In this document: positions 2,393-8,580 of the stretch, in pieces | Layout of the letters: each line of letters begins with the position of its first letter | How positions within the stretch are numbered: position 1 is the stretch's first letter | DNA from: a virus | UHGV virus genome: UHGV-0175179 | Strand: one strand, 5' to 3' | Length of the DNA stretch: 29,565 bases | Translations under genes and position numbers: made by a program | Notes under the pieces: model-generated | Database searches by the model: none | Seen by the model: only the letters and a program-made list of their open reading frames with translations | What the model was told of the DNA's origin: nothing

Positions 2393-2782
2393 ATGTTGAT
2401 GGATAAGACAGGACCGCAGCCAGGCCGCCGCCAGTTCTTAGAGCAACGGGCGCGGCTGCAAGCCAGTTTGAACGCCTCACGCGTGAATGACACTGCAACC
2501 CGTTTTAACCGCCTGGATGATGCCTGCAAAAAGGTGATTTTCATCCTGGCAAACGATGCGTCCAGATACATAGCCGGAATGCCGAAACTGAGCGCCAAAC
2601 ATTTGGGTTGCACTTACGAAAATCTAACCGAAAAGGAGCAAACGTGCCTTTTGATGGGCATTAAGCGCCTTACCGAATTTGCAGCATCAATGCCGTGGGA
2701 ATTTGAGGACTACGCCGCGCCACGCGCTGAAATTCAGGCGATACGCGATAAACCACCCACGCCAGATAACGCAGTCAATTAA
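2393..2782 (+). CDS. Hypothetical early protein (~130 aa)
   Basis: ATG at 2393 with GGAGG 5 nt upstream (the track used a GTG at 2387). No recognisable motif. Confidence 0.45.
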   Translation: MLMDKTGPQPGRRQFLEQRARLQASLNASRVNDTATRFNRLDDACKKVIFILANDASRYIAGMPKLSAKHLGCTYENLTEKEQTCLLMGIKRLTEFAASMPWEFEDYAAPRAEIQAIRDKPPTPDNAVN

Positions 2783-2852
2783 CAACTAACTACTCACAAA
2801 AAAGAAACAGGCGCTAACGCGTCGGGCTTCTTGCACCCTGGAGAAAGTAAAA

Positions 2853-3836
2853 ATGATTCGATCTCTCGTTAAATGGCCCGGTGGTAAAGGCCGCGTTATG
2901 CCTGATTTGCTGCCGATTCTGCCGAAAGCCGATTGCCTGGTGGAACCGTTTGTCGGCGGTGCTTCTGTTTTCCTCAATACTGAATATCGCCGTTATATCC
3001 TGGGTGATATAAACCCAGATTTAATTAACCTGTATCGCCAGATAGCCCGCTGGCCTGATGTGGTGATCGACGCTGCTCGCCCGCTGTTTAAAGTGTACGG
3101 TGATAAAGACGGCTATAAGTGGATCCGCGACGATTTCAACGCTCGCGCCCATGACCTTCTTTCATCGCGCAATGTGTTTGAGGACGGACCGGACGCGGGC
3201 AAGATTCTTCGTGCAGCACAGTTTCTTTACCTGAACCGTCACGGATATAACGGCGTAGTGCGCTACAACCAACAGGGCGGATATAACGTTCCCTTTGGTA
3301 GACACAAAACCCCGCCTTACTTCCCGGAAGAACAGATCCGTTTATTCTCTGAAAAAGCTAACGACACGAAAGCTATTTTCGTGTGCTGCGATTTCCAGAG
3401 CACGTTAAAAATCACGATTGGTAGTGACGCGGTTATCTACTGCGATCCGCCATACCTGCCAACAAGCGAAACCGCTAATTTCACCCAATACCACACCGCC
3501 CCGTTTGGGATTAAAGAGCATCGCCAGTTAGCTGCCGCCCTGCTGGATATTAACCGCCTTACTGGTTCGCCGGTGATCCTGTCCAACAGCGACACCCCTG
3601 CTACCCGCGAGATTTATCACACTTTCAACTTCCAGGAAATCAGCGTTAACCGTTCTGTCAGCGCGAACGCCATTACCAGAGGGGTCGCCAGTGAAGTGAT
3701 TGGCGTCCTGAAAGTGTGCAGCGGCTGCGGTCGTGCCGATGGTGGCCGTTGTCCTGACTGCGGCCCGGTAATGGGTGACGCGACCTACAACGAAATGCTG
3801 GCATCGGCTGCGGCCAATGGCGTGGAGGCTTTTTAA
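2853..3836 (+). CDS. dam: DNA adenine methyltransferase, Dam family, with a C-terminal Cys4 zinc-ribbon extension
   Basis: KWPGGK and LVEPFVGGASVFLNTEYRRYILGDINPDLINLY are near-identical in pattern to E. coli Dam (KWAGGK, LVEPFVGAGSVFLNTDF..YILADINSDLISLY). DPPY catalytic motif present (IYCDPPYLPT). The C-terminal ~45 aa add CSGCGRADGGRCPDCG. GGAGA RBS 8 nt upstream. Confidence 0.9.
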   Translation: MIRSLVKWPGGKGRVMPDLLPILPKADCLVEPFVGGASVFLNTEYRRYILGDINPDLINLYRQIARWPDVVIDAARPLFKVYGDKDGYKWIRDDFNARAHDLLSSRNVFEDGPDAGKILRAAQFLYLNRHGYNGVVRYNQQGGYNVPFGRHKTPPYFPEEQIRLFSEKANDTKAIFVCCDFQSTLKITIGSDAVIYCDPPYLPTSETANFTQYHTAPFGIKEHRQLAAALLDINRLTGSPVILSNSDTPATREIYHTFNFQEISVNRSVSANAITRGVASEVIGVLKVCSGCGRADGGRCPDCGPVMGDATYNEMLASAAANGVEAF

Positions 3837-4036
3837 TGGCAACCCGTATCGATGCAACTCAATCCGAATTTACCCGCGGTGCGCTGGCTGCGCTTAACGA
3901 AGCTAAAACCATTGCGCTTGCCCATGCGACGTTAGCGGGCGTTCTGGCTGGGCCTGACGTGGCTAATACATTGCTGATTTCTTTCAATACGTTATTAGAC
4001 CCGCTAATCGAAAAGCATTCACAACGGGAGGGTTAA
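3836..4036 (+). CDS. Hypothetical small protein (66 aa), translationally coupled between the two methyltransferase genes
   Basis: ATG overlaps the dam stop (TAATG). Ala/Leu-rich, no motif recognised. Confidence 0.4.
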   Translation: MATRIDATQSEFTRGALAALNEAKTIALAHATLAGVLAGPDVANTLLISFNTLLDPLIEKHSQREG

Positions 4037-4038
4037 TC

Positions 4039-5049
4039 GTGGGTGCTTTGGCTTACTACAACGAAATCGATCCATATGCAGCACAGTGGCTGCGCAACCT
4101 CATTGATGCCGGGCATATTGCGCCAGGCATTGTTGATACCCGTTCAATTGAGGATGTAACCCCCAATGACCTTAAAGGCTTTACTCAATGTCACTTCTTT
4201 GCCGGGATCGGTGTGTGGTCATATGCCCTGCGTCTTGTGGGCTGGCCGGACGACAAACCGATCTGGACTGGATCCTGCCCATGCCAGCCTTTCAGCCCGG
4301 CAGGCAAAGCAACTGGGTTTGATGACGAGCGGCACTTATGGCCCGCCTTTCATTGGCTCATTGCTCAGTGCCGCCCTGTCGTTGTCGCTGGCGAGCAATC
4401 TGGAAGCGCTAACGCGAACGTCTGGCTCGACCTTGTACAAACTGACATGGAAAGCCTGGGCTATGCCTTCGGGGCGGTCGCGTTTCCGTCTGCGAGCGTC
4501 GGTGCGCCACACATCCGGGACAGAGCTTACTGGGTGGCCGACACCAACGGCGAGCGCATGGAAACACCCTGGAAATCAGGGGAGGCAGGGAGGCTTGAAT
4601 TTGCAAACGGCCACAGCATTAGCTGGGTGGCCGACACCAACAACACAGAGCAACAACCAAATCTCAGGAGTTGGAGCGGCTGCAGATCACCCGAAGCGCG
4701 GGACAACTTTGGGCGGGGCTGCTCAGCTGTCGGGGTGGCCGACACCAGCTTCAAGGGACGGCAAGGGGGGGTATCAGGGCGGGAGGATGCGCAACGGGAA
4801 GCTGTCGACGGACACGCTGGATGTGACGGCGCAAATTGCGGGACCGGTCCGGTTAACGGTTTCTGGCGATCTGCTGACTGGCTGTATTGCCGGGATGGAA
4901 ACTGGAGGCCAGTTAAACCCGGACTTAAGCCGCTGGTTGATGGGGTTACCGGACGAGTGGGAAAAATCCGCGCCTACGGAAACGCTATCAACGTTGAAGC
5001 TGCAACAGCGTTCATAAAGGCTTATATGATGGGGGCGTCAAATGTCTGA
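4039..5049 (+). CDS. DNA cytosine-5 methyltransferase, phage orphan Dcm-like (GTG start); reading frame integrity uncertain
   Basis: Motif I-like FAGIGVW, motif IV PCQPFSPAG, motif VIII-like APHIRDRAYWVA and motif X-like RAYGNAINVEAATAFIKAY in this frame. GGGAGG 7 nt upstream of the GTG. The stop overlaps the gpA start. Confidence 0.8.
   Translation: MGALAYYNEIDPYAAQWLRNLIDAGHIAPGIVDTRSIEDVTPNDLKGFTQCHFFAGIGVWSYALRLVGWPDDKPIWTGSCPCQPFSPAGKATGFDDERHLWPAFHWLIAQCRPVVVAGEQSGSANANVWLDLVQTDMESLGYAFGAVAFPSASVGAPHIRDRAYWVADTNGERMETPWKSGEAGRLEFANGHSISWVADTNNTEQQPNLRSWSGCRSPEARDNFGRGCSAVGVADTSFKGRQGGVSGREDAQREAVDGHAGCDGANCGTGPVNGFWRSADWLYCRDGNWRPVKPGLKPLVDGVTGRVGKIRAYGNAINVEAATAFIKAYMMGASNV
4531..4749 (+). 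repeat. Three direct copies of a ~15-bp motif GGGTGGCCGACACCA inside the Dcm-like gene
   Basis: Copies at 4531-4548, 4623-4641 and 4732-4749, read directly from the sequence. They encode WVADTN / WVADTN / GVADTS in the gene frame and GWPTP three times in the overlapping frame. Confidence 0.8.
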
Positions 5050-7660
5050 CACCGCCTTTGCATGGCCCTGGAACGCGCCGCGCCAAGCTGTTGGCCTGTA
5101 CACCTACGAACCGAAAAAGATCGCCCCGCTTGCCGGGGCGGTGGCGCATCATCCTGCCGTAAAAAAACACATCGATCACATCTTCAAACGCGCCGGTTAC
5201 AACCCCGACGACGTTCGAGACCGTGACGCGCTGATCCAGTCGCTGGACAGGTACGAACCGTGCGGCCTGCCACTGGCCGCCCAACAAAATATCATCCGGC
5301 AGGAAAGTGCAGCCGCCAAAGCTGCGGCGGCTGCCTGGGCCAATACGCCGGAAGGTGTCGAAGCGCGTTTGTTGTCTGAGCCGTTCTTCATCCGCGAAGT
5401 CTGGCGCAAAAAAATTGAATGGTTACGGGCCAACCGTGAAACCAGACACACCAATGATTTTCTTATGGGGACCGTGAAAAAATCATTGCTGCGTCTCGAT
5501 GTTGTGCGCACAAGGCAAGGTGTTTCGCCTGATATCACCGGCGAACTGGCCGCGTACTGGTTCGGGCGCTGGCAACGACTGGCTGATTTCACAAAGCGGG
5601 AAGCACTAAGCGCCGCTAATGAGATCGCCAGCCGCATGACTGAAATGCTGGGGACGGAATGCGAAGCCCTGGGACGGAATGTTTCCGACATGAACGTCGA
5701 AGAACTGGACTGGCTTTATTGCCACATGGGCCGCGAAATGCTGGCGCTTCGTATTGTGCCGCCTGCATGGTATGCGCCGTGGGAACGCGAGCGCATATGC
5801 ACGGCCATTTTGCGTATGGCTTCGCCTGACTGGTGGGGGCGCAAAATCTGGCGCCTGCGTTGTGACTGGCGCGAAAACCAGCTGCGTGCTGTTGGCGCGG
5901 TAAATAAAAAAGCGCATCCGTATATTAGCGCATCAAGCCTGATGGAATGGCAGGAACAGCGACGTAAAAACCGTAATTTCTTCAAAAGTCATGAACTGGT
6001 AGACGAAGACGGCAACGTTTCGTCGCTTGAGGACATGATTAACAAATCCACGTCTAACCCTGCAATTCGTCGTCATGAGCTTATGGCCCGTATGGCTGGT
6101 GTGGAGCTTGTCGCCCAGAGCCGTGGCGATGTTGGCATCTTCCTGACCATCACTTGCCCGTCGAAATATCACGGCAATATTGCGTCCGGCCACCATAACG
6201 CAAAATGGAACTACGACACGGTTGCACAGGCGCAACGCTATTTATGCCGCGTATGGAACCGGGCAACCGCCAAACTGAAACGCGAAGATTTGCGCCCTTA
6301 TGGCTTCCGCGTCGCCGAGCCGCATCACGATGGGACGCCACACTGGCACGCGTTGTTATTTATGCCAAAAGAGCAAGTCAAAGCCACGGTTGCGATACTT
6401 CGCGCCTACTTCATTGCGGAAGACCGCGACGAGCTGGGCCGCAACACCGGTGCTCGCTTCAAGTCCAAAAAAATGGACCCACGGAAAGGGTCAGCAACGG
6501 CATACATCGCCAAATACATTTCGAAGAATATCGACGGTCACGCGCTGGCCGGTGAACTGGACGACGAAAGCGGCAAGCCGCTGAATGAAACAGCCAAATA
6601 TGCAATGGCCTGGGCGTCACTTCACCGCATCCGCCAGTTTCAGCCCATCGGACAGCCGCCCATATCGGTTTACCGCGAGCTGCGCAAACTGAGCAATCAG
6701 ATCACGACCCGCCAGAAAATTGACAATACCTTCAAGCGCGGTGCGCCGTTGCTTGTGGATCCTGCAATGGATGCGGTTTGCGCCGCTGCCGATGTCGGGT
6801 GCTTTGCTACCTACATCATCCGCCAGGGTGGTGTTTTGATCCCGCGTGAAAACTATGTCGTCCGTCTGGCCTATCAGCCAGCTGATGAAATGAATGCTTA
6901 TTGTGAGATCCCCGAAAAGGTTTTCGGGGTCTGGTCGCCGCGTCTGGGTGATGCCTCCCGTATTTGCACCCGTCTGGTTAAGTGGAAAATCCGCGCCAAA
7001 TCCAAAGCTACCACCGAGGCCAAAAACGGCCCCGGTTTGGGGGGTGACCTTTTGCCGTCGCCAACCGGCGACGCTTGGAGTTCTGTCAATAACTCTACGG
7101 AAGCCGAAAAAATCACCGATTTTTCGCCTGATGTGGAGGGGATGACAGAAGAATCAGAAGAGGAAATCGTCGATTTTGAAAACATGGACCAACCGACGCG
7201 GCGCAAATTGATGCGGCGACTACGTGAAACACCATTCAAAAGGCAGCAAAACGGATCACCTTATGAGCCAGGCAGCGAATTAGATGTCGCCTGGCGTTCT
7301 GCCGTGGAAAAAACCGAGGCCAGATCGGCGGCAGAAAAGGCCAGACGGGGGGCGCTTGCTCCTGCGGTTGCCAGCCTGCTAGCAGATGCGGCGTTGTATT
7401 CGGTTGAGATTTCAGAGATTCAGGCCGTTTCGCTGTTAATGGGGAGTTGTCTGGAAATTGGCGGCAAAGTTTATCGGGCCAGTGCTGACGGCCAGTTGAT
7501 AACGCGTCAATTACCCGACGAGTCACGGACGGTGAATAAATTATGGGAACGTCTGCGGGATAACCACGGCATAGATGCCACGCGCCTGCGGTTCGATCCT
7601 GCGGGTGAATACGCAAAGATGTTAACGAAAGCAATTAATTGCGCTGACAAAAAGGGGTGA
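5042..7660 (+). CDS. A: Replication initiation endonuclease, P2 gpA family (HUH rolling-circle initiator)
   Basis: HUH motif HWHALLF and active-site tyrosine motif SATAYIAKYISKNIDG, typical of P2 A-type initiators. 872 aa. Position after the early genes matches P2. Confidence 0.9.
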   Translation: MSDTAFAWPWNAPRQAVGLYTYEPKKIAPLAGAVAHHPAVKKHIDHIFKRAGYNPDDVRDRDALIQSLDRYEPCGLPLAAQQNIIRQESAAAKAAAAAWANTPEGVEARLLSEPFFIREVWRKKIEWLRANRETRHTNDFLMGTVKKSLLRLDVVRTRQGVSPDITGELAAYWFGRWQRLADFTKREALSAANEIASRMTEMLGTECEALGRNVSDMNVEELDWLYCHMGREMLALRIVPPAWYAPWERERICTAILRMASPDWWGRKIWRLRCDWRENQLRAVGAVNKKAHPYISASSLMEWQEQRRKNRNFFKSHELVDEDGNVSSLEDMINKSTSNPAIRRHELMARMAGVELVAQSRGDVGIFLTITCPSKYHGNIASGHHNAKWNYDTVAQAQRYLCRVWNRATAKLKREDLRPYGFRVAEPHHDGTPHWHALLFMPKEQVKATVAILRAYFIAEDRDELGRNTGARFKSKKMDPRKGSATAYIAKYISKNIDGHALAGELDDESGKPLNETAKYAMAWASLHRIRQFQPIGQPPISVYRELRKLSNQITTRQKIDNTFKRGAPLLVDPAMDAVCAAADVGCFATYIIRQGGVLIPRENYVVRLAYQPADEMNAYCEIPEKVFGVWSPRLGDASRICTRLVKWKIRAKSKATTEAKNGPGLGGDLLPSPTGDAWSSVNNSTEAEKITDFSPDVEGMTEESEEEIVDFENMDQPTRRKLMRRLRETPFKRQQNGSPYEPGSELDVAWRSAVEKTEARSAAEKARRGALAPAVASLLADAALYSVEISEIQAVSLLMGSCLEIGGKVYRASADGQLITRQLPDESRTVNKLWERLRDNHGIDATRLRFDPAGEYAKMLTKAINCADKKG

Positions 7661-7925: not shown

Positions 7926-7989
7926 GATTCTGCGGGTGCGGGCGGCAAAGAGTCCGCATGTTTTGATTCTAAAAGTGAGATAAGAAAAA

Positions 7990-8221: not shown

Positions 8222-8253
8222 TAGTTAAAAAGCCCGCTTTATGCGGGCTTCGT
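8222..8253 (-). terminator. Rho-independent terminator, mainly for the leftward P-Q-ogr transcript (bidirectional hairpin)
   Basis: AGCCCGC / GCGGGCT stem with a 5-nt loop (8231-8249). On the minus strand it is followed by TTTTT; on the plus strand by a weaker T-rich tail. Confidence 0.5.
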
Positions 8254-8580
8254 TTATGCTGTCTGGCCGTTGAGCAGGTCCAGCGCGAATTGACGTTCTT
8301 CCGGCTTGAGCCGGTCAATCAGGAATTTAACCAGCTTGTTACCGGTCAGCCCGCTGGGGCTGAGAGTATGTGAAAACTGGGCGTTAAAAACAAAGGTATG
8401 GCCGCATTCAACTTCCGTGCAGGCGCAGTACAAATCAGCCAGTTTTTTGTCTTTCCAGTCAGATTTACGAATGATGGCCGGTGAGCCGCATTCAGGACAT
8501 TTAATTTTAAAAACTCGCATGTTCACCATCCCGCACGCCATTGCTAACAATGGGGATGATTTTAACTTAATTGCGCTCAT
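8254..8580 (-). CDS. ogr: Ogr/Delta-family zinc-finger late transcription activator (possible shorter form starting at 8520)
   Basis: CPECG...LYCACTEVECGHTFVF matches the Ogr/Delta C4 zinc-finger pattern (P2 Ogr CPLC...YHQCQNVNCSATFIT). The ATG at 8580 overlaps the portal stop (ATGA); an internal ATG at 8520 would give an Ogr-sized 89-aa product. Confidence 0.75.
   Translation of the reverse strand: MSAIKLKSSPLLAMACGMVNMRVFKIKCPECGSPAIIRKSDWKDKKLADLYCACTEVECGHTFVFNAQFSHTLSPSGLTGNKLVKFLIDRLKPEERQFALDLLNGQTA

Follow-up and report, generated by a model that had tools for sequence, protein, structure and literature searches.

A very probable second coding frame nested in the cytosine methyltransferase gene of a P2-like prophage

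The viral genome UHGV-0175179, a stretch of 29,565 nucleotides (nt) referred to here as the window, is a P2-like (Peduoviridae) prophage. Its early region contains a gene for a Dam-family adenine methyltransferase, a 66-codon open reading frame (ORF) and a gene annotated as "DNA cytosine methyltransferase" (Dcm). An earlier note on this DNA treated Dcm as one ordinary gene, and thereby missed a second conserved coding frame that lies inside it. We refer to the product of the annotated frame as alpha and to that of the nested frame as beta. Beta is very probably a genuine coding gene, and Dcm appears to encode both alpha and beta in the manner of M.EcoHK31I, and to belong to a very large family that annotation has largely missed.

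Here we describe the nested frame, its distribution and the selection acting on it, the way in which the parts of a C5-cytosine methyltransferase (C5-methylase) are divided between alpha and beta, and the explanations that have to be weighed. The neighbouring genes of the block and their prophage setting are then considered.

The nested frame and the selection acting on it

The +1 frame of alpha is open over positions 4160-5017 of the window, with an ATG at 4166, compared with about 17 stops in the third frame. For comparison, 80 viral loci were fetched via the annotated frame (51-67% amino acid identity), beside those of the Salmonella phage SI7 and E. coli 40EC; in these the offset is always +1. 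The +1 frame is open in 83/83 related loci (alpha identity 51-67%), over 235-351 codons, and the third frame contains 6-26 stops. Synonymous shuffling of alpha reaches the observed +1 length in 0/300 trials in most loci.

The beta product has matches to over 4,600 database proteins lacking a Pfam domain. In a database clustered at 50% identity it matches 10,620 clusters at E <= 1e-3 and 7,511 at E <= 1e-10, and it also matches the families phrog_1008 and phrog_31772. Among 80 loci in bacterial genomes that were found through beta alone, 76 carry an intact alpha around beta at the same offset, and the four exceptions comprise two truncated alpha genes, one indel fusion and one gene cut by the end of its contig. 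These 80 loci span γ-, β- and α-proteobacteria, Desulfovibrionales and others. The same nested pair is present in Paenibacillus phage Rani, in which gp51, annotated as "g50 internal gene", is nested at +1 within gp50 (beta vs gp51, E = 9e-15; alpha vs gp50, E = 6e-25), and the architecture therefore spans phages of Proteobacteria and Firmicutes.

The nested ORF is occasionally annotated, for example as "putative Mte8-like protein" in K1ind2, where "Mte8-like protein" is an annotation label only, and as the inner of two nested "DNA methyltransferase" coding sequences in Xanthomonas PhiXhv-18. PHROGs lists both frames, as separate "DNA methyltransferase" families. Beta belongs to no Pfam family, the RefSeq and Prokaryotic Genome Annotation Pipeline (PGAP) records examined annotate only alpha, and a literature search found no description of a nested frame in phage methylases.

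Variants of the pair are also observed. In Klebsiella michiganensis DSM 25444 (locus L097, 2239-3489), one indel in the first module of beta fuses alpha (motifs I-VIII) to beta (modules and C-domain), and strands the alpha C-domain in the third frame. The converse fusion, of beta to the alpha C-domain, is found in the protein P0133. Both fusions may be sequencing errors, pseudogenes or natural fusions. A 445-residue beta homologue (P0181) carries a C-terminal extension of ~160 aa with an HNH-like Cys/His pattern (CAHCG...HHRDED...CRKHH).

Selection was mapped by classing the differences in 30 disjoint sequence pairs according to their effect in each frame, with bootstrap confidence intervals (CI), and the entropy at the third codon position of alpha was computed on 77 non-redundant genes. 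Region by region, the map of selection (Table 1) reads alpha only, both, beta only, both, and alpha only. Entropy at the third position of alpha is 1.2-1.45 up to 4260, 0.7-1.0 over 4264-4530 and 0.43-0.69 over 4849-4980, and returns to 1.48 past the beta stop. Over 4264-4533 the rate at alpha-synonymous sites is halved (0.20 vs 0.42). In parts of 4534-4850 the first codon position of alpha, which is the third of beta, is the most variable, and in this variable region changes that are nonsynonymous in alpha and synonymous in beta are 1.7 times as frequent as changes altering both proteins. Alpha is nevertheless free of stops through the neutral stretch in 63/63 genes, against 1.9 stops expected from beta-synonymous shuffles. 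This region-by-region selection in each frame indicates that both frames are coding. We infer that alpha must be read through 4534-4848 while its sequence there varies freely.

Table 1. Features of the early region of the window, with omega values for the alpha and beta frames where selection was mapped (bootstrap CI in brackets)
Feature	Positions	Strand	omega_alpha	omega_beta	Remarks
Alpha, annotated "DNA cytosine methyltransferase", 336 aa	4039-5049	+			GTG start; catalytic large domain, neutral linker, C-terminal helix
Beta, ORF nested at +1 within alpha, 283 aa	4166-5017	+			Unannotated in RefSeq and SI7 records
Beta start region	4154-4168	+			ATG-TAA "start-stop" 4154-4159; ATG 4166; GAGG 4150-4153
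Beta leader	4166-4263	+			Open, not selected as protein in the beta frame
First region of the selection map	4039-4263		0.13	0.80 (CI 0.65-1.01)	
First doubly constrained segment	4264-4533	+	0.27	0.49 (CI 0.40-0.58)	Alpha frame: motifs IV-VIII (PCQ 4279-4287, GEQ 4390-4398, RDR 4516-4524); beta frame: conserved N-domain (SLSARQAK, GSTLYKLTWK, LRAS.RHTS)
Variable region of the selection map	4534-4848		1.03 (CI 0.94-1.13)	0.58 (CI 0.46-0.70)	
Three WPTP modules of beta	4535-4850	+			~4535-4627 type T1; 4628-4735 type T4; from 4736 type T0; alpha frame an unconstrained linker
Second doubly constrained segment	4849-5014	+	0.28	0.39 (CI 0.27-0.51)	Beta frame: C-domain, motif-IX-like QLNPDLSRWLMGLPDEW at 4910-4960; alpha frame: C-domain, motif-X-like YGNAI at 4975-4989
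Dam-family N6-adenine DNA methyltransferase, 327 aa	2853-3836	+			Catalytic domain ~residues 1-285, then Cys-rich tail (CSGC...CPDC)
Conserved small protein, 66 aa	3836-4036	+			Start overlaps Dam stop (TAATG)
gpA replication initiator (nicking endonuclease)	5042-7660	+			PF05840, E = 4.3e-106; labelled "replication endonuclease" in SI7
Integrase	154-1191	minus			
Helix-turn-helix repressor	1246-1545	minus			

An ATG in the beta frame is kept in 73/77 non-redundant relatives, at a few recurring positions that correspond mainly to alpha codons 32, 38 and 42. Where the ATG at codon 38 is trailed by TAA or TGA, a new ATG is found at codon 42, 9 nt downstream, and relatives use different codons for this arrangement (ATG-TGA ... 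ATG). The start-stop may be a re-initiation device or a simple compensation for a lost start. At a site encoding "DERS" in alpha, 8-9 nt upstream of the codon-38 ATG, 41/76 sequences read AGG-AGY or CGG-AGY and thus contain GGAG, and AGG is used for Arg at this site in 32% of cases vs 8% elsewhere in alpha. Among 77 sequences, no slippery heptamer (maximum 12%) or homopolymer (maximum 16%) is conserved at any aligned position. The retained ATG, the GGAG enrichment and the lack of a conserved slippery site or homopolymer make independent initiation of beta probably the simplest reading of these sequences.

Division of methylase parts between alpha and beta

Alpha starts with a GTG preceded by a good Shine-Dalgarno sequence (GGGAGGG, 6 nt upstream). 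It matches phrog_363 (E = 1.9e-88) and PF00145 (E = 1.8e-12), the latter match being limited to residues 75-179 against profile positions 64-173 of 324. An hhalign comparison with M.HhaI gives a probability of 98% over motifs I and IV-VIII, and the top Foldseek matches of the alpha core are M.HhaI and M.HaeIII (probability 1.0). Alpha thus possesses motifs I and IV (PCQ) to VIII and an M.HhaI-like fold, as in classical C5-methylases. In the AlphaFold2 (AF2) model, the predicted local distance difference test (pLDDT) score is 83-94 for residues 1-173, 22-32 for residues 174-283 and 67-90 for residues 306-336. A selected and folded target-recognition domain (TRD) with motif IX was not found between motifs VIII and X of alpha, where pLDDT and omega_alpha take the values given above and the profile match has ended (173/324). 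In 42 aligned alpha homologues both ends are near-invariant, and the middle is of low complexity and rich in indels. This middle part of ~105 residues (~166-270) is neutral and is predicted to be disordered. Motif X of alpha (RAYGNAI and a helix) is assigned by its pattern, by the confident C-terminal helix and by a weak colinear match (E = 0.059) to the GNGV of gp70 of Mycobacterium phage ShiLan.

The N-terminus of alpha (residues 1-75, 4039-4260) looks permuted by its motif order relative to classical C5-methylases. A motif-II-like "YYNEIDPYAAQ", which locally and weakly matches M.HhaI residues 37-47 (E = 0.35), comes before a motif-I-like "FFAGIG", and the stretch from motif I to motif IV is 35 residues longer in M.HhaI than in alpha. 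Rani gp50 and ShiLan gp70 have the classical motif order; the AF2 model is confident over the alpha N-terminus.

Proteins of the beta family consist of a variable leader, a conserved N-domain (SLSARQAK, GSTLYKLTWK, LRAS.RRTS), 1-8 tandem modules of ~33 aa that open with WPTP, and a C-domain (GGQLNPxxSRWLMGLPxEW) followed by a basic tail. A set of 271 beta proteins contains 958 modules (1-8 each, median 33 aa), which fall into 232 types and 163 architectures, and many module types recur at different positions and beside different neighbours. Modules were typed by greedy clustering; single-linkage merged nearly all of them via the shared WPTP and LAG flanks. The window, with the array T1-T4-T0, has the tandem short modules that characterize multispecific phage C5-methylases.

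The relationship of beta to the methylase is indicated by ShiLan gp70, a single-chain C5-methylase with classical motifs I-VIII (PF00145, E = 4e-42; phmmer to M.HhaI, 5e-19). Past motif VIII, gp70 carries in one frame three LLPTP.A.DG.GG modules, then RLAPAFSEWMMGWPAGW, then RIIGNGVVPQQA, so that the modules and the motif-IX-like segment sit in frame between motif VIII and GNGV. The beta profile aligns colinearly with gp70 residues 202-350, comprising the modules and the W..MGWP..W segment (E = 1e-7, probability 94%), and within this alignment beta residues 249-265 are paired with RLAPAFSEWMMGWPAGW. The alpha profile in turn aligns with gp70 motifs IV-VIII (E = 7e-17). These alignments of both profiles suggest that beta is the variable region and motif-IX position of a normal enzyme, and alpha the rest of it. 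In a direct comparison with M.HhaI, the sole local hhalign match of beta is to motif IX (E = 0.38).

The ShiLan gp70 gene itself contains a 138-aa ORF in its +1 frame (locus L170, 1547-1963), which lies over motifs V-VIII and ends with two more LLPTP/MLPTP modules. It bears a weak likeness to the beta N-domain (E = 0.035), and may be a relic of the nested arrangement or an intermediate towards it.

A two-subunit scheme, its precedents and its alternatives

In the scheme that we propose, Dam, the small ORF and the cytosine methylase would be read from one transcript continuing into gpA, and the cytosine methylase would be made from a single DNA stretch read in two frames. Alpha would supply the large domain for S-adenosylmethionine binding and catalysis, including motif I, PCQ, the motifs up to VIII and the motif-X helix, with the ~105-residue linker joining both ends; the openness of the linker would matter, not its sequence. 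Beta would start independently at the internal ATG, and its N-domain, overprinted on alpha motifs IV-VIII, would probably bind alpha. The ~33-aa WPTP modules, as a putative target-recognition array, and the motif-IX-like C-terminus of beta would together provide the counterpart of the "small domain" in classical C5-methylases. The two chains would then assemble into the active enzyme, as in M.EcoHK31I, and methylate replicating phage DNA, thus blunting host restriction. We infer all of these elements, namely that beta is translated separately, that it assembles with alpha, that it recognises the target and that the enzyme counters restriction. In our judgement the two chains likely form a single enzyme in which beta is the recognition subunit, although this is held with less confidence than the coding status of beta.

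As far as published descriptions allow a match, the closest precedent is M.EcoHK31I. In this enzyme beta is encoded within alpha in another frame; alpha carries motifs I-VIII, motif X and a predicted TRD, and beta carries motif IX (PMC2836561, PMC3404938). Both chains are needed for activity, the beta N-terminus mediates their association (PMC2836561, PMC3404938), and alternative internal ATGs can start beta (PMC2836561). The window gene resembles it in that beta lies wholly inside alpha, on the same strand and at +1, and in that alpha carries motifs I and IV-VIII, plus the pattern-based motif X. It differs in being an orphan phage gene, whereas M.EcoHK31I belongs to a restriction-modification (R-M) system; in the length of beta (283 aa, and 235-450 aa in relatives, compared with 176 aa); and in the location of the TRD, which is predicted in alpha for M.EcoHK31I, while the TRD-like modules of the window are in beta and the alpha variable region is neutral and disordered by prediction. 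A search of plasmids with beta returned only phage-like "DNA cytosine methyltransferase" genes. M.EcoHK31I was reportedly studied by Lee, Kam and Shaw in 1995 (NAR 23:103) and by Fung et al. in 2006; for the multispecific methylases of Bacillus phages and the split enzyme M.AquI, both considered below, the works cited are those of Trautner et al. in 1996 (in PMC12707154) and of Karreman and de Waard in 1990 (in PMC3404938), respectively.

According to a review (PMC12707154), the C5-methylases of the temperate Bacillus phages SPR, phi3T and rho11s carry tandem target modules between motifs VIII and IX of a single polypeptide, and are thought to protect against many R-M systems. By this description, they share with beta the tandem arrangement of short modules, but consist of one chain in one frame, whereas the window array is on a second chain in a second frame. 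The WPTP array looks like this principle transferred to a subunit of its own. ShiLan gp70 has the homologous parts in the same order, with motifs IV-VIII corresponding to those of alpha, and the LPTP/WPTP modules and "...EWMMGWP.GW" segment to those of beta, and differs in having all parts in one frame and the classical motif order. In M.AquI, as outlined in PMC3404938, a C5-methylase is split into two polypeptides within the variable region. That split is end-to-end, with motifs I-VIII in alpha and IX-X in a beta that is not nested, in contrast to the window gene, where motif X is back in alpha.

Several observations weigh against the two-subunit scheme. In the window the Shine-Dalgarno sequence for ATG 4166 is weak, the GAGG lying 12 nt upstream. 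Beta on its own is modelled poorly by AF2 (mean pLDDT 48), with only the part encoded by 4264-4533 reaching 67-78, a result that would fit a chain folding on its partner and equally a shallow alignment. Neither motif IX of beta nor motif X of alpha is statistically detectable against M.HhaI or PF00145 by Pfam, phmmer or BLASTP, and the labels "motif IX" and "motif X" are putative assignments that draw on the gp70 alignment together with pattern and position. For gp70 too, BLASTP and phmmer give no significant match of these two motifs to M.HhaI and the PDB. Pfam scans of beta, of its C-terminus and of artificial alpha/beta/alpha chimeras never extended the PF00145 match, and phmmer and profile searches of beta against solved structures returned chance matches only. 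As to the function of the block, phage Dam-family enzymes can serve packaging or regulation as well (PMC12707154).

Among the alternatives, beta might be expressed only by programmed frameshifting, with the ribosome reading the alpha N-terminus, shifting +1 into the modules and motif IX, and then returning to motif X. The resulting order of alpha (I-VIII), beta (modules, IX) and alpha (X) mirrors that of single-chain gp70, and the fusions in L097 (alpha N-terminal part to beta C-terminal part, in frame via a single indel) and P0133 (beta to alpha C-domain) join the same parts. However, two shifts would be required, the best candidates for a slippery heptamer or homopolymer reach only the frequencies given above, and the spacing from PDEW to GNA after the shift would be only ~5 residues. 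Frameshifting would also need neither a beta frame that is open and selected over 4264-4533, nor an alpha frame open over 4534-4848, nor a conserved beta ATG. Both fusions look like indel variants, since intact alpha occurs in related strains (P0315). We consider expression by frameshifting alone unlikely.

Alternatively, beta could be separately translated and overprinted but have a job unrelated to the methylase, for example in anti-defence or regulation, alpha being a complete enzyme whose specificity is low or relaxed. According to a review (PMC8227390), accessory proteins that arose by overprinting are often encoded in long same-strand overlaps of viruses, and the beta N-domain has no detectable relatives outside its family. 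Against this, the variable region of a bona fide C5-methylase shows homology to the modules and C-terminus of beta, which are therefore not de novo sequence; alpha has no selected or foldable region at the expected place of the TRD; and the experimentally studied nested case requires both chains for methylation. An unrelated function for beta is accordingly improbable, to about the same degree as frameshifting.

A single-polypeptide orphan Dcm, in which the +1 ORF encodes nothing and merely results from G+C-rich codon usage combined with strong alpha conservation, might be argued from the long +1 ORFs that synonymous shuffles already give (mean 80-250 codons, with 5-20% of shuffles reaching the observed length in the most G+C-rich loci), from the RefSeq/PGAP annotation of alpha only, and from the missing Pfam family and poor AF2 model of beta, but is very improbable in view of the frame being open in all related loci and enclosed by an intact alpha in nearly all those found through beta, the 1.7-fold excess of beta-synonymous changes with omega_alpha near one in the variable region, the suppression of synonymous sites limited to the overlap, the homology of the beta modules to in-frame modules of a single-chain methylase, and the beta start codon maintained with compensation.

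Returning to the two-subunit scheme, it is a tentative suggestion that the WPTP modules give multispecificity. Equally tentative is the broader notion of a very large and essentially unannotated class of enzymes, in which a catalytic subunit and a shuffled multi-module TRD subunit are encoded in two frames, with one target per module. The TRD of M.EcoHK31I-type enzymes would then lie in beta, and the alpha variable region would be a stop-free spacer.

The methylase block and its prophage setting

The closest records to the window are the Salmonella phages SI7, SW5 and SW3 (Peduoviridae, Irrigatiovirus), with a nucleotide identity of 92% over 84% of window 2700-5200. Their early region is annotated in identical order, as Dam, hypothetical protein, DNA cytosine methyltransferase and replication endonuclease, and an E. 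coli prophage is annotated with the same layout but other small ORFs. SI7 differs from the window in its small ORF, which has 75 aa and is unrelated to the 66-aa ORF, and in the module content of beta, the first module being of type T12; beta is unannotated but open there too. The Dam / small ORF / Dcm block is real, conserved, ordinary for P2-like prophages and already on record.

The earlier note had described the block as a pair of co-transcribed orphan methylases, differing in chemistry, directly upstream of the replication gene (gpA), and this description holds, together with its gene order and stated coordinates (Table 1); the operon is tightly packed. Both overlaps of stop and start codons that it reported are present, TAATG at 3834-3838 between Dam and the 66-aa ORF, and the 8-nt overlap of the alpha stop with the gpA start (ATGTCTGA, 5042-5049); the junction of the 66-aa ORF with Dcm is a 2-nt gap (TAA tc GTG) and not an overlap. 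Co-transcription fits the lack of a convincing plus-strand terminator inside 2853-7660, the first good ones being at 7936-7959 and 8230-8250. The label "orphan" is fair, as no restriction endonuclease gene is adjacent. The integrase and repressor genes face the plus-strand operon, which comprises in turn a Fil-like ORF, a conserved ORF of unknown function, Dam, the 66-aa ORF, the C5-methylase gene and gpA. Coming after the repressor and cox-like genes, the methylase block appears by its position to belong to the early lytic operon. From what is known of P2 it should be repressed in the lysogen, and the absence of a methylation motif there would thus be no refutation of the self-protection or anti-restriction role that was first proposed for the block. 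This role is plausible by analogy, being the standard reading for phage orphan methylases (reviewed in PMC12707154).

Dam matches PF02086 over residues 8-268 (profile positions 1-252 of 253, E = 4.3e-58), TIGR00571 with 256 bits against a cut-off of 115, and phrog_56, and contains DPPY; it is a full-length member of the Dam family (D12 class), above the curated cut-off. It is not the orthologue of host Dam, as the E. coli equivalog NF008152 scores 258 bits against a cut-off of 441. By its family, its target is presumably GATC. The window shows no depletion of GATC (126 observed vs 134 expected). The Cys-rich tail of Dam (CSGCGRADGGRCPDCG..., residues 286-327, window 3709-3833) has matches to a short stretch of exodeoxyribonuclease VIII/RecE (NF007259, positions 526-556) and also to the exonuclease families phrog_20376 and phrog_2082. 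E. coli prophages are 95.8% identical only up to ~3703, where the tail begins, which suggests a mosaic joint at this point in the sequence. The Erwinia Dam has no Cys-rich tail, and the 40EC Dam has a different one.

The 66-aa ORF has no match in Pfam, NCBIfam or PHROG. It has 20 homologue clusters (63-94% identity) in Enterobacterales (Citrobacter, Salmonella, Erwinia, Pantoea), with a conserved core of residues 11-60. Differences between homologues concentrate at codon position 3 (37 vs 19 and 17; 25 vs 11 and 9; 34 vs 14 and 12), indicating a real, selected gene. In Pantoea a homologue lies between Dam and Dcm, in an Erwinia dacicola prophage Dam is followed by a 72-aa homologue and then by gpA, with Dcm absent, and in SI7 and E. 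coli 40EC unrelated small ORFs fill the slot between Dam and Dcm. The 66-aa ORF tracks Dam rather than Dcm, and stands directly after Dam in every context seen. It was suggested in the earlier note that the protein could be a modulator, an idea for which no evidence was found with either methylase. The conservation of the ORF under purifying selection and its constant translational coupling to Dam would be in keeping with such a role, but the protein has no recognisable domain, the slot holds unrelated ORFs in SI7 and 40EC, the ORF occurs without Dcm in Erwinia dacicola, and in a mosaic phage operon the mere proximity of genes says little about what they do. Modulation of one or both methylases is accordingly unlikely.

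Across the window (1-29565), G+C-rich palindromic hexamers are strongly avoided, and among 1,484 hexamers the ten with the strongest under-representation are palindromes without exception. Observed and expected counts are 0 vs 22 for TGGCCA, 1 vs 21 for CGGCCG, 0 vs 17 for GCCGGC, 0 vs 15 for GCGCGC, 2 vs 16 for CCGCGG and 3 vs 16 for GGCGCC. Avoidance of the EcoHK31I site YGGCCR was considered as a meaningful signal and rejected, because only its palindromic forms are depleted, alongside further palindromes rich in G+C, while the non-palindromic TGGCCG and CGGCCA are enriched. The depletion of YGGCCR is general palindrome avoidance.

Other ORFs near the block include an 80-aa ORF of the early operon (2135-2377), which matches phrog_816 "cell division inhibitor" (E = 1.4e-26), belongs to a Fil-like family and is found in relatives too. 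A 131-aa ORF directly upstream of Dam (2387-2782) has an end-to-end match to phrog_7428, a family of unknown function (E = 7.8e-81), and is conserved in SI7 and E. coli prophages. Between gpA and the portal-side late genes, a 108-aa ORF on the minus strand (8254-8580) has the pattern CPEC...C.C....C; on visual inspection it looks similar to the Ogr/Delta late-gene activators found in P2-like phages.

The same-strand overlap of alpha and beta covers ~850 nt and is conserved from phages of Proteobacteria to those of Firmicutes, with one frame kept open yet neutral in sequence over part of its length, and provides a natural test case for two proteins sharing the same DNA. If the dual-coding reading is true, thousands of phage and prophage "DNA cytosine methyltransferase" genes would each contain an overlooked second protein of 235-450 aa, and predictions of specificity that take the alpha variable region as the TRD would be reading neutral sequence. 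Shuffled recognition modules on a separate subunit would then offer these phages a compact way to change or broaden their protective methylation.

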